Below, piece after piece: positions 1,292 to 32,546 of a DNA stretch of 64,000 nucleotides; within the stretch, counting starts at the first letter, position 1; every line of letters starts with the position of its first letter. This stretch comes from an uncultured Gemmatimonadales bacterium (lineage in GTDB: Bacteria > Gemmatimonadota > Gemmatimonadetes > Gemmatimonadales > GWC2-71-9): positions 224,001 to 288,000 of the forward strand of contig CAWHFW010000002.1 in the NCBI GenBank assembly GCA_963828735.1, in the 5' to 3' direction. A program made the position numbers and the translations under genes. The notes beneath the pieces are model-generated. The model made no database searches. It saw only the letters and a list, made by a program, of their open reading frames with translations, and was not told the DNA's origin.

Positions 1292-1368
1292 GGAAGATGC
1301 GCAACCCGTTCCCCAGTCAGGGAGTTTCGCCGCAACGCAGGGAGTGTGCCGTGACGGCCAACACGCGT

Positions 1369-1581: not shown

Positions 1582-1595
1582 AAGCTATGAGGCTA

Positions 1596-2441
1596 CTACG
1601 GTTTTGGAGGCGGGTCAAGTTCAGGCCCTTCCTCAGCTTCGGGAGCGTCGGGCTCCACGACCCAGCCGACGTCCAGCGCGGCCCGGCGGACCCGATCGGC
1701 CCGGCGCCGGCGGTGGACGAGCCAGAGCACCACGAGGCCGACCACCGCCCATCCTCCACCGGCGATCAGCCACTGGCCCAGGGTATACCGATGTCGGAGG
1801 GCCCGGCGCCACGCTTCCTCGAAGCGCCCAAGCGTAAGGCCCGTCGTGGCCAGCACCGCGGTCTCGAAGTCCTCGCCCCGCTCGAGACGCCCGAGCAGGG
1901 GCGCGAGAGTGCCCGTGGGGTTGCGGTGCGCGAGCTCGGTGACGGCGGAGGCCGCGAGGGCATAGGCCGCGTCCGCGGTCGAGGCCGAGCCGCGCAGGGC
2001 CCCGTCGAGCTCGGTCAGGGAGGGGATCGCACCGCGAACGACGGCGAGGTTGAGCTCGAGGCCTCCAAACCGCTCCCACTCGCCTGCGGCCCAGGCGGCG
2101 TAGCCCTCGTCGAACCAGAGGGGCACGCGCACCGGGACTGCCTCGTGGAGCGCGAGGTGGGCCAGCTCGTGCCGCAGGGTGCGGAGGAGATCGTCCTGGT
2201 CGGCGCGGAGGAGGATGGTGCGAGCGCCCGGGAGCGCGATGGCCGCGCCCCACGTCGGGGCGCGGCCGGAGGTGAGCGAGTCGAGCGTCCTCCCGTCGGG
2301 GACGACGATGAGGCGAAGGGGCCCGGGATCCCGCACGCCCAAGCCGGGCCACTCGGCCGGCTGGTCCGCGGCTCGGGCGAGCGCCCGGGCAACCTCGCGC
2401 TGCGCGGGCCACGCCACGACCGTCACCCGCCCGACCTGCAT
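1596..2441 (-). CDS. Peptidase MA-like (HExxH zincin) protein with C-terminal TM helix; true start probably near 2500
   Basis: LRHELAHLAL and PLWFDEGYA motifs; the in-frame upstream stretch LLALALLLQG looks like a signal peptide. Confidence 0.75.
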   Translation of the reverse strand: MQVGRVTVVAWPAQREVARALARAADQPAEWPGLGVRDPGPLRLIVVPDGRTLDSLTSGRAPTWGAAIALPGARTILLRADQDDLLRTLRHELAHLALHEAVPVRVPLWFDEGYAAWAAGEWERFGGLELNLAVVRGAIPSLTELDGALRGSASTADAAYALAASAVTELAHRNPTGTLAPLLGRLERGEDFETAVLATTGLTLGRFEEAWRRALRHRYTLGQWLIAGGGWAVVGLVVLWLVHRRRRADRVRRAALDVGWVVEPDAPEAEEGPELDPPPKP

Positions 2442-2476
2442 GGCGGCGGGCGTGCCCTGGAGCAGGAGCGCGAGCG

Positions 2477-3343
2477 CTAGGAGAGCAGGCTGCGCGGGAC
2501 CTCACCCCCAGCGGCCGCCACGTCGAGCATCTCCTTACAACGCTTGGCCCACGGGTTGAACTTGTTGGCCTTGTGCCCTTCTGCCCAGGTCTGCATGGCT
2601 TCGTCGCGCTGCCCGGCGAACCAGAGCGCGCGGCCGAGCTCGAAGTAGGCCTCGATCAGGTTCGGGCCCAGCTTCAGGGTCTTCCGGAAGAAGGTCTGCG
2701 CGTCCTCGTACATCTCGCGCTCCAGGTAGACGAGCCCCAGGTAGTAGTGCGCGTAGAGCGTCGCCTTGCGATCGTTGTCGAGGCGGATGGCCTTGGACAG
2801 GTGCTCGATCGCCTCGCCGAAGATCCGCTTCTTGAGGCAGATGTACCCGACGTTGATCCGCGCGAGCGCGTTCGCCGGCTCCTTCATCAGCACCCGCGAG
2901 AAGGTGCCGAGGGCATCGTCGTAGTCCTCGTGAAGCATCTGGGCCCAGCCCAGGAGCGATTGCGCCTGGATGTCGCCAGGCGCGAGCGCGAGCGCCTTCT
3001 CGAGGGACTGGATCGCGCCGGCGTAGTCACCGAGGGAGATGAGGCTCCACCCCTTCTCGATATACGTGGACGCACCGAGATGGTCCGCGTGGACCGCCGG
3101 GCGCGCACCGGTGAACTGGGGCGCCGTCGCGGCACCGGTGGCGTTCCCCTGCTTGTACCGCTCCACGAGCCCCCGGATGTCTTCCTTCATCTGTCCCAAG
3201 TCGCCGAGCGCGCCGTCCACCCGCTTGAAGAGCGCGATGATGTCCCGCTTGACGGTCTCACGCTCGGCCCCCTGCGCGGCGCCGAGTCGCAATTCGATCT
3301 CCTGGAACTGACCCCGCAGGGTCGCGATCCACTGCTCGCTCAT
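2477..3343 (-). CDS. TPR repeat protein with N-terminal coiled coil
   Basis: MSEQWIATLR...; several TPR units; ATGA overlap with cheW. Confidence 0.85.
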   Translation of the reverse strand: MSEQWIATLRGQFQEIELRLGAAQGAERETVKRDIIALFKRVDGALGDLGQMKEDIRGLVERYKQGNATGAATAPQFTGARPAVHADHLGASTYIEKGWSLISLGDYAGAIQSLEKALALAPGDIQAQSLLGWAQMLHEDYDDALGTFSRVLMKEPANALARINVGYICLKKRIFGEAIEHLSKAIRLDNDRKATLYAHYYLGLVYLEREMYEDAQTFFRKTLKLGPNLIEAYFELGRALWFAGQRDEAMQTWAEGHKANKFNPWAKRCKEMLDVAAAGGEVPRSLLS

Positions 3344-3810
3344 GAGGGGCTTTCCATGGCGGTCAACGCCATCCGTTCGGTGGACGACAACAGCTTGCGC
3401 GCGTTCAGGATGATGATGGTCCGCTCGGGTCGCGTCACGATGCCCATGATGTACGCGGCGGCGAGCCCGCTCACCATCGGCCCGGGGGCGGTGATGGTCG
3501 TGCTGTCCACCCGCATGACCTCGCGCACCTCGTCGACCAGGACGCCCACGCGCTGCTCGCCCAGGTCTACGACCATGAGCCGGGTCTCTTCCCGGATCGG
3601 CGCCGCCAGCTCGAACCGCTTTCGCAGGTCCACCACGGGCACCGCGCCGCCTTCGTAGGGGACGACCCCTTCGAGGAAGTCCGGCGCCTTGGGCAACCGC
3701 GCCGGCGCGACGTGCCGCAGGATCCGCTCGACCTGCAGGATGTCGAACGCGAACTCCTGGGTGCCGACCCGGAAGGTCACGACCTGAATGTCGTCGCCCG
3801 TATCGCTCAT
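3340..3810 (-). CDS. cheW: Chemotaxis adaptor CheW
   Basis: QVVTFRVGTQEFAFDILQVERI...PVVDLRKRF...GVLVDEVREV. Confidence 0.92.
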   Translation of the reverse strand: MSDTGDDIQVVTFRVGTQEFAFDILQVERILRHVAPARLPKAPDFLEGVVPYEGGAVPVVDLRKRFELAAPIREETRLMVVDLGEQRVGVLVDEVREVMRVDSTTITAPGPMVSGLAAAYIMGIVTRPERTIIILNARKLLSSTERMALTAMESPS

Positions 3811-4235
3811 GCGGCCGAGGTCTCCATGAAGCGCGCACCAAGCGCGGCCAGGTCGAGCAGTGGAATCAAGCCGTATTCCGTGCGGGCCACCGCCGCGGCC
3901 CACGGAAGCGCGCTCCCTGACGGCACGGGGAGGCCCCGGTCGTACAGCACCGATTCGGCCGCATCGATCTCGAGGCAGAGCCGGCGTCCGCCCACCTCGA
4001 CCAGCACGCCCATCTCGGTTCGCTCGTTCGGGCAGGCCCGTCCCTCGAGGAGGGCGGCGAGATGCACGAGCGGCAGGATGCGGCCGCGAATGACCGACAC
4101 GCCGCGCACCGCCGGCTCGATCGACGGCACGGGAAACGCCGTCCCGGGATCGAGGACCTCGACGACCTGAGCGAGCGGCAGCCCCACCACTCGCTCGCCC
4201 GCGCGCACCAGCAGGTGGCCGACGCCGCCTCTCAT
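3807..4235 (-). CDS. cheW: CheW-like protein
   Basis: [11 protein letters not shown]...[21 protein letters not shown] overlap with cheB. Confidence 0.85.
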
Positions 4236-5308
4236 TGGCTTGCCATCCGGTCCAGCTCCTCCCCGACACGCGCCGCGATGCGACCGATCGGCAGAACGTG
4301 GTTTACGCCGCCGGCCTGCACGGCCGCGCTGGGCATGCCGTAGATCGTGGCCGTCTCCCGATCCTGCGCGATTCCGACGCCCCCGGCGTCTCGGATCTCG
4401 CGCAGGCCGTCCGCGCCATCCCGACCCAGCCCGGTGAGGACCACCCCCACCGCGCGGGGCCCGAAGATCCGGGCCACGCTCCGGAACAGCGGGTCGGCGG
4501 CGGGGCGCACGCCCCACACCGCGGGCTCCTGGTCGAGCTCGAGCCGCAAGCCCTCGGTCGAGATGGCGACGCGCATATGATAATCCCCGGGTGCCACGTA
4601 GGCGGTGTCCGCCAGGACCGGAGTCCCGTGCTGCGCCTCGACGACGTTGAGCCGGCTCTGCGAGGCGAGCCGCTCCGCGAGGCTGTGCGTGAACTTGGGC
4701 GGCATGTGCTGCACGATCAGGATCGCCGCGTCCTGTCCGGTCGCGAGCTGCGGTACCAGCTCGGCCAGGGCCCGGGGGCCGCCGGTCGAGGCGGCGATCG
4801 CGGCGCAGCGGCGGGCCCGGCCCGGCAGCGCGAACATCGCCTGCATGTGCGCGCTGCGCGCCGGTCGGGCGAGCACCGGCATCCGAAGGATCTCGGCGCT
4901 CCGCACCGCGCGCAGCGTGCCGATGAGGCGCTCGCGGAACCGGGCGATGGCCTGATCGCTCCGATCCTCCTCCTTCGGGACGAGGTCGACGGCCCCCAGC
5001 TCGAGCGCGCGGATCGCCGCGCCCGTGCCCCGCCCCGCGTACGAGCTCACCACCACGATCGGCCGGGGCGACTCCGACATGATGTAGCCGATCGCGCCGA
5101 GGCCATCGAGATCGGGCATCTCCAGGTCCATCAGGACCAGGTCCGGCTCGAGGTCGTGCACTTTCTGCAGGGCCTCGACGCCGTTCCGTGCCGTTGCCAG
5201 GGCGCGGAAGTCGCCGCTCTCGTCCACGCAGTCGGTCAGCAGCCGCCGGAAGAAGGCGCTGTCGTCCACGATCAGGACGCTCCGCGGCTCAGAGGCTCTG
5301 GATGCCAT
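4232..5308 (-). CDS. cheB: Chemotaxis methylesterase CheB
   Basis: Receiver domain (VDDS, MDLEMP) plus [14 protein letters not shown] and LTGLGRDGA catalytic motifs. Confidence 0.96.
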
Positions 5309-5774
5309 GCGACACCGACGAGACCTCGACCCGCCCGTCGGCCACCCAGAGCTTCACGGTGCGGCCGAAGTCGCCGCCGGTCGCCTCGCCCACGAGCGCT
5401 ACGCCGTGCTGGTAGAGCGTCTGCCGACAGGCGACCAGGTTGCGCTCGCCCATCTGGATCGTGCCCGGCGCGGCGAGCGCCGCGAACATGCTCGCGCCGC
5501 CCACCAGCCGGGCCGTGATTCGGCGGCCGCTCGCGCCCTTCTGGGCCATCAACTCGAGGAGGCGCGGGATCGCGGTCTGCGGGAACTTGGCCGGGTTGTC
5601 GTCCTTGCGGCTGAGCGCGGGCGACGGCAGCAGGACATGCGCGAGGCCGCCGACCTTCGCGACCGGATCGTGGAGCACGACGGCGACGCAGCTGCCGAGT
5701 CCGACCGTGACCAGCACGTCCGGCCCCGAGCCGGCCCTGAGGTCGGCGACGCGGACGATGATCGCGCCGTTCAC
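5289..5774 (-). CDS. cheD: Chemoreceptor glutamine deamidase CheD
   Basis: [14 protein letters not shown]...GLAHVLLP...GGASMF...MGERN; GTG start overlaps the cheR stop. Confidence 0.93.
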
Positions 5775-6589
5775 GCGGGCCGCCGGTACACGCGCTCGCG
5801 GGGGTCCACGAGCGCCAGCCGGTCGCGGGCCGAGCCGAACAGGGTCTCCACCTTGCCGAGGACCAGGAATCCTCCGGGAAGGAGCGCATCGGCGAACGTC
5901 CGGAACAGCCGCTCCTGCATCGGGCGATCGAAATAGATCACGACATTCCGGCACAAAATGAGGTCGTAGTCGGTGCGAAGCGGCGCCTCGCGGCTCAGAT
6001 CGAGGGGCCGTATGTGGACGCGGCGGCGGACGCGATCGCCGACGCGGAGCGTCTCGCCGCTGTCCTCGAAGTAGCGGCTGACCAGGTCGGACGGCATTTC
6101 GGTCAGGCCCTCGCGGCGGTAGACGGCGTCGCGGGCCCGCTCGAGGCTGGCGCGATCGATATCGGTGGCATCGATCGTCAGCCGGGTGAGCTCGCCCCCG
6201 CGGCCCGCCTTGTCGAGGCAGTCCGCGGCGAGCGCGGCCAGGGTATAGGGCTCTTCCCCCGACGCGCAGCCCGCGCTCCACACGCGCACCTCTACGCGCG
6301 GCCGGTCGAACAGTGTCGGGAGCACCGCGCGCCGGAGCAGATTCCAGGTCTCCGCGTTCCGATAGAACCGGGTGACGTTGATCGTGAGCGCGTCCCGCAG
6401 GTGCTCGTACTCGACCGGCGATCGGCTGAGGAGCGCCCGGTAGTCGTCGTACGTGTGGACGCCGCAGGCCCGCATACGCACCGCGATCCGTCGGCGGATG
6501 CACTTGTCCTTGTACGCCCCGACGGTGAAACCGCTCGTCTGGGCGATCTGTCGCGCGAGCGCCGCGAACGCCGCGTCGTCGGCCGTCAT
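5771..6589 (-). CDS. cheR: Protein-glutamate methyltransferase CheR
   Basis: LTINVTRFYRN, VWSAGCASGEEPYT, DLILCRNVVIYF. Confidence 0.96.
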   Translation of the reverse strand: MTADDAAFAALARQIAQTSGFTVGAYKDKCIRRRIAVRMRACGVHTYDDYRALLSRSPVEYEHLRDALTINVTRFYRNAETWNLLRRAVLPTLFDRPRVEVRVWSAGCASGEEPYTLAALAADCLDKAGRGGELTRLTIDATDIDRASLERARDAVYRREGLTEMPSDLVSRYFEDSGETLRVGDRVRRRVHIRPLDLSREAPLRTDYDLILCRNVVIYFDRPMQERLFRTFADALLPGGFLVLGKVETLFGSARDRLALVDPRERVYRRPA

Positions 6590-8202
6590 GGCGCCATGTC
6601 CAGCATCTCGAGGTTCGCCCGCGCCAGCTCGTGCCCGGGATTGAGCTCGGTGGCGCGGCTCCAGCTCTCGCGGGCCAGCGGCTTGTCGCGGCGCTTGTAG
6701 GCGATGTTGCCGAGCTTGAAGTAGAGGTCGTCGCCCAAATCGGGCGCGAGCTTGGCAGCGCGCTCGTAGGCCTCGCGCGCCTCCTCGTAGCGGCCGTTGC
6801 GGTACAGGATGTCGGCCAGGTTCTTGGAGACCTGGGGCAGCGAGGCATCCTCCGCCAGCGCCGCGCGAAGCGCCTTCTCGGCGCCCTGCGCGTCACCCGT
6901 GAGCTCGAGCAGCACCGCGAGGTTGTTCTGCAGGACCGCGCTCGAGGGGTAGGTCTCGACACCGTCGCGCGCGGCCCGGACCGCGCCCGGGTTGTCGTCG
7001 AGCCCGGCGCTCGCGAGCGTGGAGGCCCAGTACCAAAGGGCGGGCGCCGGCTTTCCGCCGAGCAGCTCGAGGGTGCGCGCGAGCCGTCCCTGCGCGACCT
7101 GATGCTCCCCCCGCTTCAGGGCCACGACGCTCCAACCCAGCATGATCCGCGCGTCGTCGCGCGCGCGGCCGGCGGCATCGCCGAAGGCGGCCTCGGCCTC
7201 ATCGAGGCGGCCTAGGCGCTCGAGCGCGTACCCCAGGTTGTGGAGTGCGGCCGGCTTGGCGCCCGCCGCGCCGGCGGCCTGCCGGAAGGCGGTGGCCGCC
7301 TCCTCCCAACGCCCTTGTCGCACGGCGATGAGGCCGAGGTAGAACGGCGCGCTCGCGTCCGCGGGCCGCAGCTCGGCGACCCGGCGGAACTCCCGGAGCG
7401 CCTCGTCCAGCATCGCGGCTTTGTAGAAGGCGATGCCCAGGTTGCGATGCTCGTCCACGCGACCGTCGTTCACCTTCGGCGCGGCCGGGGCCGAGGTGCC
7501 CACCCGGTGCGCGAACCCCGCCGTGATGAGTCCGAAGAGCGCCTTCCCCACCTCGAATTCCACCAACCCGGACTCGTCGATCACCGCCTGGACGTCGCGC
7601 GTCCCGTCGAGCAGCCGGATCAGGCGTCGCTGCTCGGCCGACAGTTCCGGCGCCGACTCCCCGAGGTGAGCGGGGTCCACCGAGAAGATGAGGTCGAAGG
7701 ACGGGATCTTCTTCTCGATCAGGCTCCATTCGTCGACCCGCCGGGCGCCCTCGAGCAGCAGGAACTCGGGGTTGATGCGCACGAGGAAATCCTCGCGCTC
7801 CGGATTGACGCCGGCCTCGAAGTTGAACGTCCCCGACGTCCAGGTGAACAGGTAGTAGACAGCCTCCTCGATCTGGAGGCGGATGTGGCTCTCCAGGTCC
7901 TCCCGGCTCACGAAGCCGAGCTCGACCAGGATCTCGCCCAGCTTGTGCTCGCGGTCGCCCTCCTGGCGATCGATCGCCTGCTGGAGCTGCTCGGCGCTGA
8001 TGCGCCCGCCTCGCAGGAGGATGTCGCCGAGCCGATCGCGGCGGTTCACGATCGCCGCGTAGACGATGTGGCCTTCCTCGAAGTAGATCGTGCCGAAGTT
8101 GTGTCGGTCGGCGAGGGCCAGGCACCCGGTCCGCCGCCCGAGGAACAGCAGCTGGATCACGTCGGGAAGACTCGCTTCCTTGAGGCTGCCCTTGATCGCC
8201 AT
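6586..8202 (-). CDS. DUF4388 (PATAN-like) + MshEN-like + TPR protein
   Basis: MAIKGSLKEASLPDVIQLL N-terminus; tandem RLGDILL/KLGEILV motifs; LLLEGARRVDEW; C-terminal TPRs. Confidence 0.85.
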   Translation of the reverse strand: MAIKGSLKEASLPDVIQLLFLGRRTGCLALADRHNFGTIYFEEGHIVYAAIVNRRDRLGDILLRGGRISAEQLQQAIDRQEGDREHKLGEILVELGFVSREDLESHIRLQIEEAVYYLFTWTSGTFNFEAGVNPEREDFLVRINPEFLLLEGARRVDEWSLIEKKIPSFDLIFSVDPAHLGESAPELSAEQRRLIRLLDGTRDVQAVIDESGLVEFEVGKALFGLITAGFAHRVGTSAPAAPKVNDGRVDEHRNLGIAFYKAAMLDEALREFRRVAELRPADASAPFYLGLIAVRQGRWEEAATAFRQAAGAAGAKPAALHNLGYALERLGRLDEAEAAFGDAAGRARDDARIMLGWSVVALKRGEHQVAQGRLARTLELLGGKPAPALWYWASTLASAGLDDNPGAVRAARDGVETYPSSAVLQNNLAVLLELTGDAQGAEKALRAALAEDASLPQVSKNLADILYRNGRYEEAREAYERAAKLAPDLGDDLYFKLGNIAYKRRDKPLARESWSRATELNPGHELARANLEMLDMAP

Positions 8203-10226
8203 CAGCGCCACTCCTCGACGACGCGATCGGCGACCGCGGGCCACTCCCACACCATCTTCTCGCGGCTGCGGGTGGCGCTGGTGCCCGGGGCGACGATGCC
8301 GCTCGAACGGCCGGACGGCTTACGTGGTGCCGGCGCGGTGGCCGCGGGCTCTTCCAGGACCTCGCGCGCGAGCGCCGCGGTGGCCGGCGCGCCGCGCGCT
8401 GCGGCGGCCTCGAGGACGCGCTGCAGGAGGGCCTGTGCGGCGCGGATCGAATCCGCGGGGCGATCGGCGAGATAGGCCGCGAGGTCCGGCTCGGGAGCGC
8501 CGAGCTTGGTCTCGAGGTCGCGCGCCAGTACGCATTGGCGCACCGATGCGTCGGGCTGGGGCAGCTCGACCACCAGCCCGCCTTCGAGGCGCGACCGGAG
8601 GCGGGGCTCGACCCCCGTCAACTCGGCTAACGGGGCCGCGCAGCTGAACACGAGCTGGCGGCCGCCGTCCATGAGCGCGTTGAACAGGACGAAGAGCTCG
8701 TCCTGGGTCCGATCCTTGGCGGCAATGAGGTGGACGTCGTCCAGCAGGAACGCGGCCGCCCGGCGATAGCGCGCCCGCCAGGCCGCCACCCCATCGCGGT
8801 TGATCGCCTCGATCAACTCACCGGTGAACTCGGGCGCGCTGAGGCAGGCGATCGGCTCCCCCTGCTCGGCGAGCGCGTTGCCGATCGCGTGCAGCAGGTG
8901 CGTCTTGCCGACGGCCGGACCGCCCACGAGCACCAGCGGGTTGTAGCGGTCACCCGGATTCGCCGCGACGGCGCGCGCGGCCTCGACCACCACCCGGTTG
9001 GCCGGTGTTTCGACGAAACCCTCCAGCCGCCAGAGCGGTGACGGCGCGGGCGGCGGCGGTCCTTCTTCCCGCGCCTGCCGCAGTGCTTCTTCGGCACCGG
9101 CCAGATTCGCCGGATCGCGGAAGGCGGCCGAGCCGGCGAGCTCGGGCGCGAGCGCCTCCGCCTCCGCCTGCAGCGCCTGCAGGCGCTCCACGTCTTCCTC
9201 GAACTCGCGCAACGCGCGCTCGGGGTCGTTCACCATTTCCTGCTCGAGCAACGCCTCGAGCTGCGCGGTGCGGAAGCCCTCGCCCTGCCAGCGGAGGATT
9301 GCGGCGCTGACCCGGGCTCGCCAGGCGTCCACTTGCTGCGCGACGGTGGCGGCAATCTCGGAGAGGAAATCGTCGAACTCGGACGGGGCGGAGGCGGCGG
9401 CTGTCGCCGGCTGCCGCTCGGCGGCGACGGCCACGAGCTCCGGACGCGCGGACCGCGCGGGCTGCTCGATCTTTTCCGTCTTGTCCCCCGCGTCCGCCGC
9501 CGCCGTCGCCTCTCCGCCCACCAGCATCTGCGCCTGCTGGGCCGTCAATGGCTTCTCGCTCACCGCCTGGAACGCGATGATCCGATTGAGCCCGCCGAGC
9601 AGCTCGCGGACGTTGTCGATGTCCAGCGCCGCGACGGCCTCGAGCACGCCCTCGCCGAACGTGGCGCGGCGCTCGTCCGCCTTCCGGCGGAGGATCGCGA
9701 CCCGCGTCTCGTAATCGGGCGCGGCGACGTCGATGATGAGCCCGCCCGCGAATCGGCGGATCAGCCGATCGTCGAGCGCCTCGATCTCGGCGGGCGGCCG
9801 GTCGCTCGTGAGCACGATCTGGCGGCTCGCCGTCTGGAGTGCGTCGGTGAGCCGAAGCAGCTCGGCCTGCATCTCCCGCCGGTGGGTCAGGAACTGCACA
9901 TCGTCCACCAGCAGCAGGTCCACATCGAGGAAACGCTTGCGGTAGGCTTCCCCATGCCCCGCCGCGATGGCCGCGTGAAAGGCTTCGACGAACTCGTCCA
10001 GCGTGAGATACTCGACGGCGAGACGCGGATTGATGGCGCGGGCCGCGTGGCCGATCGCCATCAGCAAATGCGTCTTTCCCAAGCCTGGCCGGGCGTACAC
10101 GAAGAGCGGGTTGTACACCGTGCCGGGCGACTCCGCGACGGCCTTCGCGGCGGTCACGGCAAGCCGGTTGGCCGCCCCGACCACGAGCGTGTCGAACCGA
10201 TAGAGCGGGTTGAGCGTGACGGTCAC
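8202..10226 (-). CDS. DnaA/Hda-family protein with two tandem AAA+ domains and no DNA-binding domain IV
   Basis: Two copies of YNPL..G.GKTHLL.AIG, (L/F)L.DDV and RL..R..GGL; NVRELLGGL in the first copy; 674 aa. Confidence 0.9.
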   Translation of the reverse strand: MTVTLNPLYRFDTLVVGAANRLAVTAAKAVAESPGTVYNPLFVYARPGLGKTHLLMAIGHAARAINPRLAVEYLTLDEFVEAFHAAIAAGHGEAYRKRFLDVDLLLVDDVQFLTHRREMQAELLRLTDALQTASRQIVLTSDRPPAEIEALDDRLIRRFAGGLIIDVAAPDYETRVAILRRKADERRATFGEGVLEAVAALDIDNVRELLGGLNRIIAFQAVSEKPLTAQQAQMLVGGEATAAADAGDKTEKIEQPARSARPELVAVAAERQPATAAASAPSEFDDFLSEIAATVAQQVDAWRARVSAAILRWQGEGFRTAQLEALLEQEMVNDPERALREFEEDVERLQALQAEAEALAPELAGSAAFRDPANLAGAEEALRQAREEGPPPPAPSPLWRLEGFVETPANRVVVEAARAVAANPGDRYNPLVLVGGPAVGKTHLLHAIGNALAEQGEPIACLSAPEFTGELIEAINRDGVAAWRARYRRAAAFLLDDVHLIAAKDRTQDELFVLFNALMDGGRQLVFSCAAPLAELTGVEPRLRSRLEGGLVVELPQPDASVRQCVLARDLETKLGAPEPDLAAYLADRPADSIRAAQALLQRVLEAAAARGAPATAALAREVLEEPAATAPAPRKPSGRSSGIVAPGTSATRSREKMVWEWPAVADRVVEEWR

Positions 10227-10825: not shown

Positions 10826-10830
10826 GCCGG

Positions 10831-11292: not shown

Positions 11293-11639
11293 CAGCCGAG
11301 CCGGCCGGCGGCGTCGAGCATTTCCAGCCGAGCCAGTCCCAGGTTCGCGTCCGGCCCGACCACGGCGACGAGGACCAGGTCCTCGGGGCCCAGCGCCGCC
11401 AGCACGCTGCCGCCCTCGCCGCGCAGCTGCACGAAGGCCGGCGGGCGGAGTCCGGCGCTCTCCGCGGTGCGCACGAGACGCCCCACAAGGCTCCCGGTGA
11501 GCGCGGCGGCGGCCTGGCCGTCCACCCCCTCCATGAGCTGTTCGGCAACGACCAGCCCGTCACTGGCAGCCACGACGAGCGCGCCGCGCACGCCGCGCAC
11601 GCGGGTGATCCGGTCGAGCGCCGTCTGGGTCGCGGTCAT
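11292..11639 (-). CDS. Roadblock/LC7 domain protein
   Basis: VRGVRGALVVAASDGLVVA...ANLGLARLEM. Confidence 0.85.
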   Translation of the reverse strand: MTATQTALDRITRVRGVRGALVVAASDGLVVAEQLMEGVDGQAAAALTGSLVGRLVRTAESAGLRPPAFVQLRGEGGSVLAALGPEDLVLVAVVGPDANLGLARLEMLDAAGRLG

Positions 11640-12487
11640 GCCTGCGCCTCGAGCCACGCTCGCGCGGCCCGCGCCGCCCGCTCGGCGAGGAGCGTGACCC
11701 TGCCCATCGGGAGCGCGGCCTCGCGTGCGGCCAGCACGACCGTGTCCGCGCTGGCGTGGGTGAGCACGACGTGGCCGTCCGGGGATTCGACGGCGATCGT
11801 GTGCCAGCTCCCGAGGCCCAGCAGGCGGGTCGCGCGCGCGGCCTCGCGGGACAGACCCGCGAGCTGTGCCGCCACCCGGTCTCCCGCGGGATCGCCGGGG
11901 TCCTCGGCCAGGCGACCACCGAGGCGAAGCCCGTTGGCGTCGACCAGCAGGAGGCCCTCCTCCCCATCGTCCAGGTCCTCGAACGGGCCCGCGACCGTGT
12001 CGTCCACCGGGGCGACGGGCGCGAGGGGCTGTTCCACGACCGGAGCCGGTGTCGCGGCTGGCGCCGGGGCCGTGCGCGCCGCGTCCCGGAGCGCGGGTCC
12101 GAGGCGGGCGATCGCCTGGCGGATCGAGGGGTCGTCCGGGTCCACGTCCAGCGCGCGCTGCAGGTGTTCGAGCGCGGCCGTCGTCTCGCCGGCGCGGAAA
12201 TAGAGGAAGGCGATTCCCTTGAGTGCGCTGGTCCGCATCGGGTCGAGCTGCAGCGCCGATGCCCAGGCGTCGAATGCGCCCGCGAGGTCGCCCTGATCGC
12301 TCAGGATCCGCGCCATCAGGTCGTGAGCGTCGGCCAGCCCCGGGTAACGGGTCAGCCCTCCACGTGCCACCTTGTGCGCCGCGTCGAGCTGGCCGCGGCC
12401 GCGCAGCGCTTCGGCGAGCTCCAGGAACGCGAGGCTCCCCGGCTCTTCCGCGATGCGAGCGGTCAGACGGCGGATGTCGTCAGTCAC
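11636..12487 (-). CDS. TPR + C-terminal Roadblock/LC7 fusion
   Basis: PGSLAFLELAEALR TPRs, Pro/Ala linker, LLLVDANGLRLGG...ARAT RLLGLGSW roadblock-like tail. Confidence 0.8.
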   Translation of the reverse strand: MTDDIRRLTARIAEEPGSLAFLELAEALRGRGQLDAAHKVARGGLTRYPGLADAHDLMARILSDQGDLAGAFDAWASALQLDPMRTSALKGIAFLYFRAGETTAALEHLQRALDVDPDDPSIRQAIARLGPALRDAARTAPAPAATPAPVVEQPLAPVAPVDDTVAGPFEDLDDGEEGLLLVDANGLRLGGRLAEDPGDPAGDRVAAQLAGLSREAARATRLLGLGSWHTIAVESPDGHVVLTHASADTVVLAAREAALPMGRVTLLAERAARAARAWLEAQA

Positions 12488-13529
12488 GGAACCGCTCCAG
12501 CTCCCTCATGATCGTCTCCGCCGACTGACACAGCCGTGCGACGCTCGGGCTTTCCGCCTCTTCGCCCGGTGTGCGGTCGCCCAGCCGATTCCAGGACGCC
12601 CACAGCTCGAGCGCCTCGCCGAAGCGCCCGATGGCGGCGTAGCACAACCCCAGCAGGCGGCGCGCCTCGGGCATGAGGGGGTCGCTCCGCAGCACTTCCT
12701 CGAGGGCGCCGGCCGCGAGGTCGTACTGGCCTCCGGCCAGCGCCTCCCGCGCGGGCACCAGGAGCGCGGCCAGATCGCGTCCCGGCTCCGCTTCCTGGCC
12801 GGGGTGCGCGGGATCATCGAGTACCACGATGCCTGCGTTGGTGAGCCCGTATACCGTTCGCGCCACTTCGAACTCCGAGCGGCCCAGCATCTCGGCCAGC
12901 GAGTGCAGATCGCGGGCCCCGTCGACCGCCGCGAGCACTTCCCACTCGAAGGGAACGAGATCGAGCGTCTCGCTGCCCTGGGACTCGGGCGCGGGCAGTC
13001 GCGGGACCAGGCGGAGGTGCGAGACCTTGGATCCGATGCGCGACCACTCGTCGATGCGACGCGCCGCTTCCATCAGCAGCGCCTCGGTCGGGAATCGGAC
13101 CGGCGCCTCGACCGCCGCGTGACACGAGGCGCCCTCCTCGAAGCGGAAGTAGCCCTCCGACCAGCGCAGCAGCTCGAACACCGCTTCCTCGATCTGGGCC
13201 TTGAGCTGGCGGTCGAGCTCGCGACGGGAGATGACACCCAGGCTCACGAGGATGTCGCCGAGGCGGCGGTCGTCGCCGCTCGTCTGCATGCTGCGCGCGC
13301 GATCGAGGTCGGCGCCGGTGAGCTTTCCGGAGCGGACCAGGCGGGCGCCCAGCGGTTGGGGGTCGCTGCCGACGGCCGCGGCGACGACACCGCCTCGGTC
13401 GAAGCACACGGTGCCCGCCGTCTGGCGCAGCTCCGAGGTGACGCGCAGGACCCCGCTCTTCCGGCCGAGGTCGAGGAGCTGGAAGACGTCCTGAATGTGC
13501 AGGTCCTTGAGGGGCCCTTCGAGCGCCAT
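12480..13529 (-). CDS. DUF4388 + MshEN-like + TPR protein
   Basis: MALEGPLKDLHIQDVFQLL; RRLGDILVSLGVIS; LLMEAARRIDEW; paralog of 6586-8202. Confidence 0.85.
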   Translation of the reverse strand: MALEGPLKDLHIQDVFQLLDLGRKSGVLRVTSELRQTAGTVCFDRGGVVAAAVGSDPQPLGARLVRSGKLTGADLDRARSMQTSGDDRRLGDILVSLGVISRRELDRQLKAQIEEAVFELLRWSEGYFRFEEGASCHAAVEAPVRFPTEALLMEAARRIDEWSRIGSKVSHLRLVPRLPAPESQGSETLDLVPFEWEVLAAVDGARDLHSLAEMLGRSEFEVARTVYGLTNAGIVVLDDPAHPGQEAEPGRDLAALLVPAREALAGGQYDLAAGALEEVLRSDPLMPEARRLLGLCYAAIGRFGEALELWASWNRLGDRTPGEEAESPSVARLCQSAETIMRELERFRD

Positions 13530-13532
13530 CGC

Positions 13533-16220
13533 TCAGCCCACCGACGCGGCGAAGATGTGCTGGAGGTCGCGCGCGGAGCGCGCGCGCGTGCGCGCCTGCG
13601 CGGCGTAGGGGCCGGCGGGATCGAGCTGGACGACGCGCTCCCAGGCCTGAACGGCCTGATCGAACTGTCGCTGCCGCGCGAGCGCGCCGCCCTCGTAGTA
13701 GAGCGCCCCGGCGTGCTCGGGATCGAACCGGAGCACCCGCTCGAAGGCCTCCAGTGCCTGCACCGTGCGACCATCCTCCAGCAGTGCGCGGCCCAGCGCC
13801 GTGAGCGCCTCCAGCTCGTACGGGTCGGCCTCCAGTAGGCGGACCAGCACTCCGATGGCGGCGCGCGGCGTCTCGGTGCGGCGGAGGAGGTCCGCCAGGG
13901 CGATCGCCGCGGCGCTGTAGGTCGGCAGGAGATCGAGCGCCCGCTCGTATGCCGCCCGGGCCGCCGCCCAGTTCCCGCGCTCTTCCTCGATCCCGCCGAG
14001 CTCGAACCACACCCGCACGAGCGACGGATCGAGCTGGAGGGCCGCATTGAAGGCGGCGAGCGCAGCCGAGCGATCGCCCAGGCGGGCGGAGACCTGCGCC
14101 TGGAGGTGAAAGAGATCCGGCCGCCCGGGCTCGAGCGCCTGCGCCTCGCGGATGCAGTCCAGCGCGCCCAGCGCATCGCTCACCGCCAGACGGACGCGGG
14201 CCCGCGCAACCAGCACCTCCACGTCGCCGCGTACGCGGCGGGCCAGCTCGTCCGCCAGGGGCGCCGCGTCGCCGGCCCAGCCGAGGGCCAGGAGCGCGCG
14301 GATCTCACCGAGTGTGGCGTCGGGATCGTCGGGAGTCGCGGTCCGCGCGGCGCGGTAACGCTCGAGCGCCTCGCCGTACAGGCCGCGCTTGGCGAAGATG
14401 TCGCCGAGGAGGACCGCGGTCGCGCCCTGCGGCGCGCCGCGCGCCGCGGCCCGGCTCAGCTCGGCGGACGCGAGGTCGAGGAGTCCCTTGGCGATGTAGT
14501 CGCGCGCGAGGTCGAGCGCGTCTCCCACCGCGCCGTTACCATTGGCCGCGGCCACCGTCGGGGTGAGCTCGGCGAACAGCTGATCAAGCGCCGGCGGGTC
14601 GAACGCGAACTCCCCAGCGAGCTGGTCGCCGCCCACCTCCGCCGTCAGCTCGGGAGCGATCGCGATCGTGGGGTCTTCGTACTGCAGGTCGATGGTGAGC
14701 GAGAACTTCTGCGGCACGTACAGCGGCTCAAGCTCGAGCGCGCGGCGGGTCTCGCGCAGCGCGCCGTCGAAGTCGCCGAGCTGGCTCAGGACGAAGCTCA
14801 GGTTGTAGTGGGCGCCTGCCATCCCGGGGTCGGCGTCCACCGCGCGGCCGAACGCATTCCGTGCGTCCTCGAACCGGCGAAGCTCCATGAGCACGAGCCC
14901 GACGCCGTTCCAGGCGACGGCGCTCGCGCTCTGTTCCGAGAGGGCGCCCTGGTACTCGTCGAGGGCCTGGCGGAGCTGCCGGCGCTGGAGGAACAGGAGC
15001 CCGAGATTGAGCCGCGCGGCCAGCAGCGGCCGCTCGCCATCGAGCGCGCGGCGGAACGCGGCGATCGCGGCGTCGGCCGGCTCGCCCGCGCGCACGACGC
15101 CCAGGTTGTTCCAGGCGAGCTGGTAGCCGGGATCCACGGCCACGGCCCGCTCGTAGGAGGCGATGGCCTCGGCGCGCCGGCCGGCCTGGTGGAGGCAGAC
15201 CCCGCGCTCGTTCCACAGCTTGGGCGAGTCGGCATGCTCGCGGACGAGCGCCTCGTACAGCTCGAGCGCCGCGGGCAGCTCGCGCCGGAGCAGGCGCACC
15301 TCCGCCATCGCCTGCAGGGTCAGGCGGCGGTCTTCTCCCGCCTCGAGGGCTTGCCCGTACTCGCGCAGCGCCTCCTCGTGCAGGCCCTTCTGGCGAAAGG
15401 CGAGTCCGAGGTTGTAGTGGGCCAGCGCGCCGCCTTCGACGATTTGCGGACGCGCTGTCTGCCGGGCCGTCTGTCCCGCCGCCGCGCCCGACGGCCCATA
15501 GCGCTCCAGCGCGAGATTGGCCTGGGCCCGCGCCAGCGTCGGGTTCAGCTTGATGGCGTGCTTGGTCGCCTCGCGGGCCTCCTCGTGGCGGCCGATGTCG
15601 CCGTAGACGAAGGCAAGGAGATAGTGCGCCTCGGCGTAGTCGGGGTTCCGCGCGATGGCCTCGCGCAGGGCCTCGAGCGCCGGCTCGTTCAGGCCGCGGT
15701 TGTAGAGCACCTCGCCGTAGTAGAAGCGGGCCACCGCGCTGGCGGGGTCCTGCGAGCAGGCGCGCGCGAGCCAGTCCGTGGCGGTGTCGAGGTTGCCGCG
15801 GGCCTTCTCGGCCAGGCCGAGCTGCAGCATGGCGGGGACGTCCGAGGGCTGCCAGGCGAGCAGCGCCTGGAACTCCGCGATGGCGTCTGCGTGGCGGCCG
15901 AGGGCGGCGTACGCGCGCCCGAGTTCCCAACGGGCGTCGCGATCCTCGGGGTGCCGGCGGACGCGCTCCCGGAGCTCGGTGATGCGGCGGTCGTAATGGC
16001 CGCTCTCACGGTAGGCGATGTCGAGATTGCTTTGCGCGACCTGCATGCGCGGGTCGAGCTCGAGCGCGCGCACGAACTCGGCGATCGCGTCCTCGATCAG
16101 CCCCTTCTGATAGTAGAGGACGCCCAGGTTGTTGTGGGCGCCCGCGTCGGAGGGATCGATCCGGCGGGCAAAGGAGCGCAGGACGGCGAGATCGCGCTCC
16201 GACAGCACGGGCCCGGGCAT
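13533..16220 (-). CDS. Large TPR repeat protein (895 aa)
   Basis: Many TPR units (AHNNLGVLY, AHYNLGLAF, AWNNLGV). Confidence 0.9.
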   Translation of the reverse strand: MPGPVLSERDLAVLRSFARRIDPSDAGAHNNLGVLYYQKGLIEDAIAEFVRALELDPRMQVAQSNLDIAYRESGHYDRRITELRERVRRHPEDRDARWELGRAYAALGRHADAIAEFQALLAWQPSDVPAMLQLGLAEKARGNLDTATDWLARACSQDPASAVARFYYGEVLYNRGLNEPALEALREAIARNPDYAEAHYLLAFVYGDIGRHEEAREATKHAIKLNPTLARAQANLALERYGPSGAAAGQTARQTARPQIVEGGALAHYNLGLAFRQKGLHEEALREYGQALEAGEDRRLTLQAMAEVRLLRRELPAALELYEALVREHADSPKLWNERGVCLHQAGRRAEAIASYERAVAVDPGYQLAWNNLGVVRAGEPADAAIAAFRRALDGERPLLAARLNLGLLFLQRRQLRQALDEYQGALSEQSASAVAWNGVGLVLMELRRFEDARNAFGRAVDADPGMAGAHYNLSFVLSQLGDFDGALRETRRALELEPLYVPQKFSLTIDLQYEDPTIAIAPELTAEVGGDQLAGEFAFDPPALDQLFAELTPTVAAANGNGAVGDALDLARDYIAKGLLDLASAELSRAAARGAPQGATAVLLGDIFAKRGLYGEALERYRAARTATPDDPDATLGEIRALLALGWAGDAAPLADELARRVRGDVEVLVARARVRLAVSDALGALDCIREAQALEPGRPDLFHLQAQVSARLGDRSAALAAFNAALQLDPSLVRVWFELGGIEEERGNWAAARAAYERALDLLPTYSAAAIALADLLRRTETPRAAIGVLVRLLEADPYELEALTALGRALLEDGRTVQALEAFERVLRFDPEHAGALYYEGGALARQRQFDQAVQAWERVVQLDPAGPYAAQARTRARSARDLQHIFAASVG

Positions 16221-16224
16221 CGGA

Positions 16225-16845
16225 TCAGGTCAGGCGGATGGCGTCGAAGATGGCCCGAAGCGACGGCGTGTCGGGCAGGAGCAGGAAATGGCCGCGCCAG
16301 GGCTCGGTCGTGTCCTCCACCCGGAACGAGGTCTCGACGCAGAAGACGAAGTCGCGATCGTGCCCGAAGTTGAGGTACGTCGTCGTGAGCACGGCCGCGC
16401 TCAGGTCGACGACCAGACTGGGCACCGAGGGGACCAGCATCATGCCCATGAAGTCGCTGAGCGCGTTCATGTACGCGCTCGCGAGGATGTTGCCGGCCTC
16501 CTTGAGGCCCGACTGCTCCATGGGGCCGAACTCGCCGGTCGTCCCGGCACTCCGCCTGAACAGTATATCACAGAGCGCTCGGGCCGACCCTTCGGGGAAC
16601 ATCACCAGCGTGCGACCGGTCAGGTCGCCCATCATGTGCATGAGCACGGCCGCGACCACCTCGTCGGGCGAGCCGACCAGGTCGGTGACCTCCTCGAGCG
16701 GCCGCACGTTGACCTCCGGCACGGCGATCATGATCGTGCGGTTGGTCATCTGCGACAACGCGGTCGCGGCGTGTCCGGCGCCGATGTTGGCGACCTCGCG
16801 CAGCGCGTCCAGCTGCAGCTCCTTCAGGCCCCGCACGTCTTCCAT
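16225..16845 (-). CDS. cheC: CheY-P phosphatase CheC
   Basis: DALREVANIGAGHAATALS and SGLKEAGNILAS (two ExxN sites). Confidence 0.94.
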   Translation of the reverse strand: MEDVRGLKELQLDALREVANIGAGHAATALSQMTNRTIMIAVPEVNVRPLEEVTDLVGSPDEVVAAVLMHMMGDLTGRTLVMFPEGSARALCDILFRRSAGTTGEFGPMEQSGLKEAGNILASAYMNALSDFMGMMLVPSVPSLVVDLSAAVLTTTYLNFGHDRDFVFCVETSFRVEDTTEPWRGHFLLLPDTPSLRAIFDAIRLT

Positions 16846-16855
16846 GAGTGTCTCC

Positions 16856-18733
16856 CTACAGCAGTGCCGCAGCGTCGAGAACGAGCGCGGGTGCGCCATC
16901 CGCCAGAATCGTCGCCCCACCGACGTACGGCGGCATGCCGCGCGGCGCGTCGAAGGGGGCGACCACGATGTCCTGCTGACCGAGCAGGGCGTCCACCACG
17001 AGCGCCGTGCGCCGCTCGCCGACCTCGAGGATCACCGTCGGCCTGCGTGGCGGCGCGGGCCGCGCGCGACTGGCGACGAGATCCCGCAGGTGCACGGTCG
17101 GAATCACCTGCTCGCGGACGACCAGCGCCTCGCGGCTCCGGAGCGCCGTCACGGCGCGCGGGTCGAACTCCACCGTCTCGGCCACGTAGGCGAGCGGGAC
17201 CGCGTAGCGCTCGCCGCCCGCGTCGGCCAGCAGGGCCCGCACGATCGCCAGCGTGAGCGGCACCCGAATGAGGAAGGTGGTGCCCTTCCCCACCTCGGAC
17301 CGGATCTCGAGCGTGCCGCCGAGCTGGCGGACGCGGGTCATCGCCACGTCGACCCCCACGCCCCGGCCGGAGACGCCACTCACGGCCTGGGCGGTGCTGA
17401 AGCCCGGCCGGGCAATCACGCGGAGCAAGGCATCGTCGGTGAGCCCGTCACCGTCGGCGGCGCTGCCGCCTTCCTCGCGTCGCGCCTTGGCGAGGATGGC
17501 CGCGCGGTCGATGCCGCGGCCGTCGTCGCTGACCCGCAGGACCACGCTGTTCCGCTCGCGCGACGCGGCGAGAAGGATGCGTCCTTCGGCCGGCTTTCCC
17601 GCCTTCGCCCTCGCCTCGGCCGGCTCGATCCCGTGGTCGGCGGCGTTGCGGATCAGGTGCAGCAGCGGATCGCCGATCTCGTCCAGGATCGAGCGGTCGA
17701 GCTCGATCTCCTCGCCCTCGACGTCGAAGCGGATGCGCTTGCCGAGATCGCGCGCCAGGTCGCGCACCAGCCGGGGGAAGCGCTCGAACACCTCGCCCAC
17801 CGGCGTCATTCGCGACGCGATCACCTCGGTCTGCATGCCGGACACGAGACGCGAGATCCGATCGCTGAGCTCGGCCAGCCCCCCGTCGTCGGACTGGGCG
17901 GCCATGACGTTCAGCCGGTTCTTGGCCACGACCAGCTCCCCCACCTGCTTCATCAGGCGATCGAGCCGCCCGAGGTCGACGCGGATCTGACGCTGGCGGC
18001 CCGGGGCGGCGGCGTCGAAGGCAACCGGCTCCTCGAACCGCACCGACTCGACTTCGCCGGCCGTCCGGAGCGCGGCGGCCAGTTCGTCATCGGTCGCGCG
18101 GGACTCGATCCGGAAGGCGAGCCGTCCGTCGAACTCCTCGCGCTCGAGCTGCACCAGCGGGGGGCGCACGGCCGTCACCAGACCCAGAGCCTCGGCCCGC
18201 CGCACCGCGAGCACCGCGCGGGCGCCCCGCATCACCGCATCGGGGCGGATCACCATCTGGACTGAGCGGCCGCGTGGCGCGTCCGTCGCCCGGCGGCGGG
18301 GCGGAGTCGCCGCCTCCGACGCGGGAGTGGCTCCTTCCACCGCCCCGCTCGACGGCTTCCCGCTCGCCATCTCGTCCAGGGCCGCGCAGAGGGCGGGGTC
18401 CGCCACCATCTCGCGACCGGCGGCGGCGCCTTCGACCGCCTCGCCCAGGGCATCGACCGCGCGGAACAACAGCTGAAACGTCGTGGCGTCCGACGTCACC
18501 TGGCCGTGGCGAAGCGCGTCGAGGAGGCTCTCCATGCGGTGAGCCAGCTCCGCCACGCCGGTGAACCCCATGGTGGCGCCCATGCCCTTGATCGTGTGAA
18601 TCGATCGGAAGAGCCCGCCGACGGGGTCCGTGGCGCCGGGGTCGCGCTCCCAGCTGAGCAGCAGCTGATTACAGCTGCTCAGGTGCTCCCGGCTCTCGGC
18701 CAGGAAGAGCGCGGCGTACTTGGAGACATCCAC
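16856..18733 (-). CDS. cheA: Chemotaxis histidine kinase CheA
   Basis: Hpt FRSIHTIKG; HLIRNAADHGIE, DDGRGID, SGRGVGVD; C-terminal CheW-like domain. Confidence 0.97.
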   Translation of the reverse strand: MDVSKYAALFLAESREHLSSCNQLLLSWERDPGATDPVGGLFRSIHTIKGMGATMGFTGVAELAHRMESLLDALRHGQVTSDATTFQLLFRAVDALGEAVEGAAAGREMVADPALCAALDEMASGKPSSGAVEGATPASEAATPPRRRATDAPRGRSVQMVIRPDAVMRGARAVLAVRRAEALGLVTAVRPPLVQLEREEFDGRLAFRIESRATDDELAAALRTAGEVESVRFEEPVAFDAAAPGRQRQIRVDLGRLDRLMKQVGELVVAKNRLNVMAAQSDDGGLAELSDRISRLVSGMQTEVIASRMTPVGEVFERFPRLVRDLARDLGKRIRFDVEGEEIELDRSILDEIGDPLLHLIRNAADHGIEPAEARAKAGKPAEGRILLAASRERNSVVLRVSDDGRGIDRAAILAKARREEGGSAADGDGLTDDALLRVIARPGFSTAQAVSGVSGRGVGVDVAMTRVRQLGGTLEIRSEVGKGTTFLIRVPLTLAIVRALLADAGGERYAVPLAYVAETVEFDPRAVTALRSREALVVREQVIPTVHLRDLVASRARPAPPRRPTVILEVGERRTALVVDALLGQQDIVVAPFDAPRGMPPYVGGATILADGAPALVLDAAALL

Positions 18734-18736
18734 GCG

Positions 18737-19099
18737 TCAGCCGAGAACGCGCTGGACCGCCTCGAGCACACGCGAGGGCTGAAATGGCTTCACCACGAAG
18801 TCCTTCGCGCCCGCCTGAATCGCCTCCACGACCAGCGCCTGCTGCCCCATCGCGCTGCACATCAGGATCTTGGCCTCGGGATCGGTCTTGCAGATCTCGC
18901 GGACCGCCTCGATGCCGCCCATGTCAGGCATCACGATGTCCATGGTGACGAGGTCCGGCTTGAGCGAGCGGTACTTCTCGACCGCCTGCGAGCCCGATTC
19001 GGCCTCGCCCACGACTTCGAACCCGGCTTGCGTCAGGATGTCGCTGATCATCGTGCGCATGAAGATGGCGTCATCGCAGACGAGCACTGTGTGGCTCAC
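18737..19099 (-). CDS. cheY: Chemotaxis response regulator CheY
   Basis: VCDDAIFMR, TMDIVMP, SAMGQ, VVKPF. Confidence 0.95.
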   Translation of the reverse strand: MSHTVLVCDDAIFMRTMISDILTQAGFEVVGEAESGSQAVEKYRSLKPDLVTMDIVMPDMGGIEAVREICKTDPEAKILMCSAMGQQALVVEAIQAGAKDFVVKPFQPSRVLEAVQRVLG

Positions 19100-19123
19100 G
19101 GACGGCCTCCGGATCGAGTCGAA

Positions 19124-19190
19124 TCGTGGGTCTGGGGTCGTGAGTCGTGGCGCTGGTGTGAGTCTCCCGACTCACGACCCGAGCCCACGA
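19124..19190. repeat. Intergenic inverted repeat built from GTCGTG(G/A)-type heptamers
   Basis: tcgtgggtctggggtcgtgagtcg (19124-19147) pairs with cgactcacgacccgagcccacga (19168-19190). Confidence 0.75.
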
Positions 19191-19197
19191 CCGCCTG

Positions 19198-19629
19198 TCA
19201 AATGATCGGCGCGACCAGCGCGTCGATGTCGAGCAGGATGAAGTGCTGGCCGTCCCGGATGCCGACCGCCTTCACCAGCCGGGGATCGATGCCCGGAAGG
19301 TCGGCACGTTCGGCCACCATGTGCGCCGGGACCTCGAGGAAGTCGACCACCTGGCCGACCCCCAACCCGTACCGCCGGCCGCCCACCTCCACGACCACGA
19401 TGGCACCCTCGTCCTCGCTCCGGCGCGACTGCTGGAGGAGAATGTGACCATCGAACACGGTGAGCAGGGTGCCCCGGACGTTGACCAAGCCTTCGATCGC
19501 CTCGGCGACCCCCGGGATCCGGGTGGCCTCCAGGCGCGGCAGGATCTCCCGCACGATCCCTGCCGGGGCCGCGCAAATAAGCGCACCGATGCGAAAAATG
19601 ACGGCGTGGAGCGTCGGGGAGTTAGCCAT
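19198..19629 (-). CDS. cheW: CheW-like protein
   Basis: TRIPGVAEAIEGLVNVRGTLLTV...YGLGVGQV. Confidence 0.88.
   Translation of the reverse strand: MANSPTLHAVIFRIGALICAAPAGIVREILPRLEATRIPGVAEAIEGLVNVRGTLLTVFDGHILLQQSRRSEDEGAIVVVEVGGRRYGLGVGQVVDFLEVPAHMVAERADLPGIDPRLVKAVGIRDGQHFILLDIDALVAPII

Positions 19630-30561: not shown

Positions 30562-32546
<1,985 letters not shown>

Follow-up and report, generated by a model that had tools for sequence, protein, structure and literature searches.

Can the steps that lead from chemosensory signalling to a small-GTPase polarity switch, and from PATAN and TPR proteins to pilus motors, lie together in a single locus? So far these links have been pieced together from scattered genes in Myxococcus and cyanobacteria. 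The question is raised by a 64,000-nucleotide stretch of DNA, here called the window, from an uncultured Gemmatimonadales bacterium (contig CAWHFW010000002.1, positions 224,001 to 288,000), in which a string of 19 genes runs on the minus strand from position 19629 to 1596. Assignment of open reading frames (ORFs) and of Pfam/NCBIfam domains placed chemosensory (che) genes on both sides of an eight-gene core encoding a large TPR protein, two DUF4388 (PATAN) proteins, two Roadblock proteins, MglB, MglA and a tandem DnaA-like ATPase. The string is real and conserved, and no description of it as a whole was found in the open literature, subscription papers and bioRxiv supplements lying outside the search; its PATAN-MglA-PATAN part had already been tabulated in a 2015 supplement. 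It is a variant of chemosensory-to-polarity control, and its unusual part is the DnaA-derived ATPase together with two docking-like motifs. Because candidates for the whole circuit are gathered in one string, whose modules are marked by natural deletions, a short list of pairwise tests covers the circuit.

A conserved gene string

We searched 201 genomes drawn from the phylum, 97 of them from the bacterium's own family, and compared 72 stretches from relatives that were hand-picked for spread and oddities, so that counts among them are not frequencies. Six of these (one distant locus of family f12 and five loci of other mglA copies) were set aside, as were eight cut by an end, leaving 58 uncut loci. 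Genome tallies for the tandem ATPase, flagellin, receptors and pilM include one unpublished genome (G153), and junction counts leave out gene pairs more than 400 nucleotides (nt) apart. The tandem DnaA-like protein had a strong match in 95 of the 97 own-family genomes (best E ≤4.6e-95, counted by hand), while ordinary DnaA scored about 1e-46 to 1e-62 in the same search; it also occurred in families f2-f5 and f8 and in a few f7 genomes. In 26 of the 58 uncut loci the eight core genes and the six scored che genes were complete and stood in unchanged order. Junctions of 30 nt or less were found between cheC and the TPR gene in 33 of 34 relatives, between mglA and the DnaA-like gene in 44 of 44, between the latter and the second DUF4388 gene (DUF4388b) in 46 of 46, and between DUF4388b and cheR in 29 of 30. 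As this order with its tight junctions recurs in relatives, the arrangement is not due to chance. Gene order, on whose conservation the original prediction had staked its proposal, holds across Gemmatimonadales and related families. The proposed tightly coupled unit was borne out: it joins a phosphorelay to a Group 1 MglA whose catalytic residues are intact, to MshEN-type motifs and to a tandem DnaA-like ATPase, and no described counterpart was found. Of 80 titles of named relatives, 78 were Gemmatimonadales or Gemmatimonadota, and the remaining two belonged to short contigs in bins named otherwise. High third-position GC content and conserved orthologs ruled out a frame artefact. In ten soil RNA runs, 5-11% of the sampled sequence words were present.

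The genes named at the outset were all present in the order and with the domains predicted, and their junctions were as tight as claimed: 16 of the 17 from cheW1 through a TPR gene at 2477..3343 have gaps of -20 to +10 nt, and the sole loose one, cheW1-cheY, spans 98 nt. The gene list itself had omitted two genes within the range. One is that TPR gene, present in 50 of the 58 loci, whose 288-residue product has an N-terminal helical region; the other (1596..2441, 49 of 58 loci) encodes a peptidase-MA-like HExxH protein with one C-terminal hydrophobic helix, its frame being open to 2501, where the true start may lie. There is no chemoreceptor gene inside the string. Its 5′ boundary is unmarked because cheW1 overlaps the upstream rluD by 8 nt, and a consensus scan of 1100-21000, which was uninformative, gave neither a sigma-70-type site nor a minus-strand terminator.

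A second MglA/MglB pair, the DnaA-like ATPase and DUF4388b

The MglA of the string (200 residues, 10223..10825) matched Myxococcus xanthus MglA with an E value of 5e-73. It retains the P-loop, the arginine finger, the switch threonine and the catalytic glutamine (equivalents of Arg53, Thr54 and Gln82), as Group 1 proteins do; the roles of these residues, and of the basic tract (K14, R115, K120) that holds M. xanthus MglB at the lagging pole, are described in passages of 10.1101/577387. The genome has another mglB-mglA pair after dnaX-ybaB-recR (G000:C2:439829-441285; L047:6830-8010), a position described for deltaproteobacteria (PMC3983030). This recR-linked pair matched the M. xanthus chains better than the operon pair did, with 284 versus 248 bits for MglA and 123 versus 41 bits for the divergent operon MglB (153 residues, 10831..11292). 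In a tree the recR-linked copies formed their own branch, the root and one fast-evolving operon copy being poorly placed, and the recR-linked MglA has an insertion of about 30 residues near its C-terminus. The operon MglB has largely lost the lagging-pole tract: the R115 position is Gln in 28 and Arg in 16 of 46 cases, and the K119 and K120 positions are mostly acidic. Since the recR-linked pair is closer to that of M. xanthus and stands on its own branch, and the basic tract is mostly gone, we regard the operon MglA/MglB as a dedicated second switch. It is neither the genome's main mglBA, as the recR-linked pair holds the dnaX-recR place and scores higher, nor the Myxococcus-type polarity pair that had been proposed. 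Two further Roadblock proteins precede it by domain match, a TPR-Roadblock protein (283 residues, 11636..12487) and a single-domain one (115 residues, 11292..11639).

The adjoining gene encodes a 674-residue ATPase (8202..10226) with two copies of DnaA domain III, 41% and 32% identical to the complete DnaA encoded elsewhere in the genome. Both domains are nearer to DnaA than to Hda (258 versus 73 and 192 versus 95 bits, the Hda cut-off being 194.8), and Bac_DnaA was matched twice with no DnaA_N or DnaA_C in the protein. We therefore rejected a true second DnaA, as domains I and IV are missing, and an Hda, as the scores are under its cut-off and there are two domains instead of one. A predicted model (mean predicted local distance difference test, 87.7; predicted template modelling score, 0.67) showed two AAA+ domains with a helical bundle between them and disorder at residues 245-285 and 633-657; its best fold match was Bacillus subtilis DnaA domain III, at a root-mean-square deviation of 1.5 Å. 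The Walker A lysine and Walker B aspartate are invariant in domain 1 of 44 aligned sequences and kept in at least 90% of them in domain 2, with decay in f4 and f7 copies. Just after the disordered linkers of the model lie two short motifs: motif 1 at residues about 283-299 (9330..9380) and motif 2, a Trp-rich C-terminal tail, at residues 655-674 (8205..8264), whose Trp662 is invariant in the 44 sequences. The motifs outlive the ATPase. In eight database proteins, 345-456 residues long, a single ATPase domain is left together with both motifs, and at eight loci both domains have been deleted while a two-motif ORF of 60-73 residues remains, still abutting DUF4388b; each motif profile matches six of these eight remnants, and every remnant is matched by at least one. 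One remnant pair differs by seven synonymous and no non-synonymous changes in 61 codons, a pattern that marks it, by sequence, as being under purifying selection.

DUF4388b (538 residues, 6586..8202) consists of a PATAN domain with a tandem MshEN-type insert, followed by TPRs. The insert (7873..8040) carries a tandem RLG...Q motif that scored 49.6 bits against the NCBIfam motif for cyclic di-GMP (c-di-GMP; NF053729, cut-off 38), matches the PilF/MshE chains 6f8l and 5htl, and is predicted from its sequence to bind c-di-GMP; its first half-site is RLG or RIG in 51 of 52 cases. The other such protein, DUF4388a (349 residues, 12480..13529), is likewise a PATAN domain with an insert and then TPRs, but its insert (13194..13361) is degenerate, scores 37.3 bits, just under the cut-off, and mostly has no arginine in the first half-site. 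DUF4388b is thus the clearer case among the MshEN proteins originally predicted. DUF4388b with the ATPase or its remnant was the only pair present in all 58 uncut loci, the gene before it being the ATPase in 51 and the remnant in 7. At seven of the eight remnant loci, the DUF4388b partner has lost precisely two parts, the MshEN insert and the final TPRs.

A search of metagenomes for distant relatives returned ordinary dnaA loci, with the motifs or the string in 0 of 80, and the ESM Atlas gave no usable match for ATPase residues 270-400. Other DnaA-like fusions were seen among the proteins P0080, P0096, P0152, P0142 and P0104; they comprise MshEN with two DnaA-like domains that flank a long helical region, TPR arrays with one DnaA-like domain (one named Candidatus Sumerlaeota), and a tandem ATPase with a receiver.

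The Che pathway, proposed pilus control and rival explanations

Upstream of the core lie the genes for a divergent CheW (cheW1, 143 residues, PF01584, 19198..19629, overlapping the rluD stop), a single-receiver CheY (120 residues, 18737..19099) with intact acidic-pocket, Asp and Lys motifs, CheA (625 residues, 16856..18733) and the phosphatase CheC (206 residues, 16225..16845; PF04509, NF041093). Downstream of it, the methyltransferase CheR (272 residues, 5771..6589), the deamidase CheD (161 residues, 5289..5774), the receiver-methylesterase CheB (358 residues, 4232..5308), CheW2 (142 residues, 3807..4235) and CheW3 (156 residues, 3340..3810) were assigned by domain match. CheA has Hpt, P2, dimer, ATPase and CheW domains and no fused receiver. 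The Frz pathway is defined by a CheA fused to a receiver and by the lack of CheC and CheD; we therefore rejected membership of Frz, and the Frz-like control once envisaged gave way to a Che part that is F1- or Dif-like and has no receptor in the string. F1 systems are marked by CheC, CheD and 44H receptors (PMC10746217). CheC and CheD are both present here, the best family matches of the Che proteins are archaeal and Thermotogales models (for CheA the haloarchaeal one, at 414 versus 311 bits), and among solved chains CheY comes nearest to those of F1 type. Of the genome's four receptors, one belongs to a second che cluster and the other three are orphans; by a hand count made without class models, the orphans have 154-156 residues after the hairpin tip and 22 heptads per arm, which is the 44H length. 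The Dif set of receptor, CheW, CheY, CheA and CheC is also complete, with the receptor located elsewhere and CheR, CheB and CheD extra. Together, CheC with CheD, a P2-containing CheA without receiver, receptors of 44H length and F1-type matches make F1 or Dif, not Frz, the closest known protein set. Control of a flagellar motor through FliM/FliY, which is part of the F1 definition, finds no counterpart, as neither flagellin nor FliM/N was matched in this genome (97.5% complete). Type IVa pilus genes (pilM-Q, pilB-pilT-pilC) and ten GGDEF matches were present. Across relatives, pilM was found in 93 of 97 own-family genomes and flagellin in 23 of 97; among all 201 genomes, flagellin was found in 53.

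Three loci elsewhere in the genome touch on this pathway. The second che cluster (L043:3898-12241; G000:C5 about 1231.9-1240.2 kb) encodes two receivers, a CheA without P2, CheW, a longer receptor (179 residues after the tip), CheR and CheB. A periplasmic binding protein gene lies immediately 5′ of a 44H-length receptor gene (L044:3080-6243). Finally, a HEAT-repeat gene, an HD-domain gene and a gene for a GAF-containing membrane receptor without clear methylation pairs stand in a row before panB-panC (L045:325-6890), possibly as a c-di-GMP-linked input.

We consider it about an even chance that the string is a modular signalling unit, in which F1-type chemosensory input and a predicted c-di-GMP input act on PATAN-TPR adaptors, gated by the paralogous MglA, to set where and when type IVa pili fire. 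The orphan receptors would drive CheA and CheY, with CheC, CheD, CheR and CheB serving adaptation. Phosphorylated CheY may then act on a core TPR, Roadblock or PATAN protein, the weakest step of the scheme; its target is sought among the core proteins because the genome has no FliM/N. MglA-GTP, cycled by MglB and the two further Roadblock proteins, would recruit the large cytoplasmic TPR protein (895 residues, 13533..16220), a candidate MglA effector, much as MglA-GTP and the TPR protein SgmX localise PilB in M. xanthus (PMC7519303). From the joint retention of motifs and partner we infer that the DnaA-like protein docks on DUF4388b through its two motifs and that c-di-GMP acts through the ATPase; an assembly step, driven by nucleotide in the ATPase domains, would be controlled in trans by c-di-GMP at the MshEN insert, as if MshE/PilB had been split in two. 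The PATAN domains may, by analogy, engage PilB and PilC, since two-hybrid tests in Synechocystis showed PATAN (DUF4388) domains binding both PilB1 and PilC (10.1101/2021.06.11.447907); two PATAN proteins also co-occur with SgmX (PMC11580455). Pilus control is the best reading since pili are present, flagella were not found, and the PATAN and SgmX precedents exist. Of the outputs proposed originally, pili are thus the best supported, and neither gliding, with GltG under its cut-off, nor polar division found support. Only tentatively do we suggest a more specific version: an F1 pathway that has lost its flagellar target drives the dedicated second MglA and a DnaA-derived ATPase that acts as a c-di-GMP-controlled polymer or scaffold, docked by two motifs on a PATAN-TPR receptor, and so places pilus motors at the pole. 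If true, a DnaA-derived ATPase would here serve a purpose other than replication, and there would be a first way into the surface behaviour of an abundant, poorly studied soil phylum.

Several observations weigh against pilus control by such a unit. No pilus gene lies in or beside the string, and pilM, found in 192 of 201 genomes, including f6 (10/11) and f7 (20/24), families mostly without the string, is so nearly universal that its co-occurrence fails to single out pili. The separate, more Myxococcus-like mglBA could alone run pilus polarity, and the orphan PatA of Anabaena shows that PATAN proteins need not act on pili (10.1101/2021.06.11.447907). As to the ATPase, the remnant pair L152/L153 has more replacement than silent change. 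Two unrelated proteins (P0080 and P0096) that join MshEN to DnaA-like domains in one chain speak for the scheme, but they are not orthologs. Because the seven MshEN-less loci form one clade (support 1.0) and a separate remnant (L154) keeps MshEN, ATPase and MshEN were lost together in only one of two events. The che genes and the core, moreover, come apart: five loci have all eight core genes and none of the six che genes, and L148-L150 keep the che genes and have lost the block from TPR to mglA. Loss of che with the core kept occurred in several lineages, between which relatives that retain che intervene on the tree (some nodes being weak); Roadblock genes alone were lost at L011, L012, L062 and L158-L160. 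Speaking for the scheme, five own-family genomes whose locus is short of most or all che genes (G035, G105, G108, G145, G172) have no receptor match either. Since the Che genes and the Mgl block were lost separately, the unit is modular, its parts can work apart, and an obligatory coupling of phosphorelay and Mgl is not supported. This fits che genes as an input layer plugged onto the core, and it is just as much a caution that no signal need pass between them. At one further locus (L053) such a loss is under way: the core is intact, and the che genes on either side of it lie in fragments.

The same losses, each module without the other, would suit two semi-independent modules that share a transcript but exchange no direct signal, namely an F1 Che pathway aimed at a target of its own and a PATAN-MglA-ATPase module, all the more as the string itself is fused to the housekeeping genes ileS-dksA-lspA-rluD in most loci. 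Yet the core sits in the midst of the che genes, the overlapping junctions persist throughout f1-f5 and f8, and CheY has a median identity of 87% among relatives, far above its neighbours, although most hosts have no flagellum, which argues for a fixed CheY partner; we hold such independence to be quite unlikely. The Che part might otherwise be a lifestyle switch like that of M. xanthus Dif (receptor, CheW, CheA, CheY, CheC), which controls exopolysaccharide downstream of pili (PMC5544727), and would here govern exopolysaccharide, adhesion or some other surface state, sensing through pili upstream and taking c-di-GMP as a co-input. The 5′ block CheW-CheY-CheA-CheC falls within the Dif set, the c-di-GMP motifs suit a sessile switch, and the search for flagellin and FliM/N gave no flagellar target. 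We nevertheless find this switch unlikely: Dif as described there has no CheR, CheB or CheD, all intact here, the string has no exopolysaccharide gene, and MglA, Roadblock and PATAN point to spatial control.

That both ATPase domains have their closer match in DnaA, not Hda, and share the fold of DnaA domain III, and that PatA can sit at division planes (10.1101/2021.06.11.447907), would be consistent with a link to the cell cycle, the DnaA-like protein co-assembling with or counteracting DnaA or marking a pole for polar growth or division. This is very unlikely, as the protein lacks the DNA-binding domain IV and domain I in a genome with a complete dnaA, viable lineages have dispensed with one or both ATPase domains, and most f6 and f7 genomes have no second DnaA-like match. 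DivIVA, which lies upstream in f7 loci, gives the division reading no support because none was seen between yggS and pnp in the window. Least probable is that the string steers flagellar swimming or Agl-Glt gliding: the F classes are by definition flagellar (10.1101/2022.05.07.491037) and some carriers of the string have flagellin, but the scarcity of flagellin in the family and the missing flagellin and FliM/N matches mean that flagellar control in this genome is already largely excluded. For gliding, GltG, the only family searched, gave weak N-terminal matches far under the cut-off.

Known systems and neighbouring genes

Among described systems, the Frz-switched MglA/MglB and SgmX module of M. 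xanthus resembles the string in its Group 1-type MglA, MglB and extra Roadblock proteins, large TPR protein, chemosensory input and type IVa pili in the genome. It differs in that here all the genes stand in one string with a second, paralogous pair and a P2-containing CheA, and we found no described counterpart in it to the tandem ATPase and MshEN-PATAN adaptors. F1-class chemotaxis of the Bacillus/Thermotoga/archaeal type and M. xanthus Dif share CheC, and with it variously CheD, P2-CheA, F1-type CheY and 44H-length receptors; unlike F1 operons, this one is receptor-less, has three CheW genes and is split by the core, and unlike Dif it keeps CheR, CheB and CheD. Group 1 MglA is listed in Gemmatimonadetes, and in Gemmatimonas aurantiaca GAU_1409 is tabulated as PATAN>MglA>-PATAN and GAU_1115 as MglB>MglA (PMC4316618 and its 2015 supplement). 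In these neighbourhoods, as here, PATAN genes flank mglA, but the passages and rows of that source show no link to che or to a DnaA-like ATPase, and PATAN is here fused to TPR, not to a receiver as in cyanobacterial PatA-type regulators. At the Bdellovibrio invasion pole, MglA, the TPR protein Bd2492, RomR and CdgA likewise bring a TPR partner and c-di-GMP input together at a piliated pole, although that MglA is dnaX/recR-linked and the hub, as far as the source describes it, has no Che system, Roadblock or ATPase partner (PMC3983030). The ATPase shares the initiator-clade AAA+ fold and Walker motifs with DnaA domain III and Hda, but joins two AAA+ domains in tandem without a DNA-binding domain, and these are dispensable while the short motifs persist. 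In MshE-PilB, too, an MshEN-type motif adjoins an ATPase, whereas here it sits on a separate neighbouring protein.

The distant f12 locus (L039:187-8874), with a single DnaA-like gene, a TPR gene, a receiver-GGDEF gene, a CheR-TPR gene and two CheW genes, is possibly a rearranged relative that encodes its own diguanylate cyclase. Upstream of the string, on the same strand (19622-34632), lie tilS, hpt, ftsH, folP, a diadenylate cyclase gene, a TMEM260-like glycosyltransferase gene, yggS, pnp, ileS, dksA, lspA and rluD. Downstream (2-1584) there are a small membrane ORF, a tRNA-Val (1217-1291) and a gene for a signal-peptide TPR protein, which are also conserved 3′ of the string in many relatives. 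Further along the window, 50151-58241 is likely an integrated element of about 8 kb and lower GC content: part of a tRNA-Met (58167-58241, minus strand) recurs at about 50151-50186, positions 56903-57904 hold a degenerate integrase-like ORF, and among the cargo are orphan receiver proteins and a protein with five PKD repeats.

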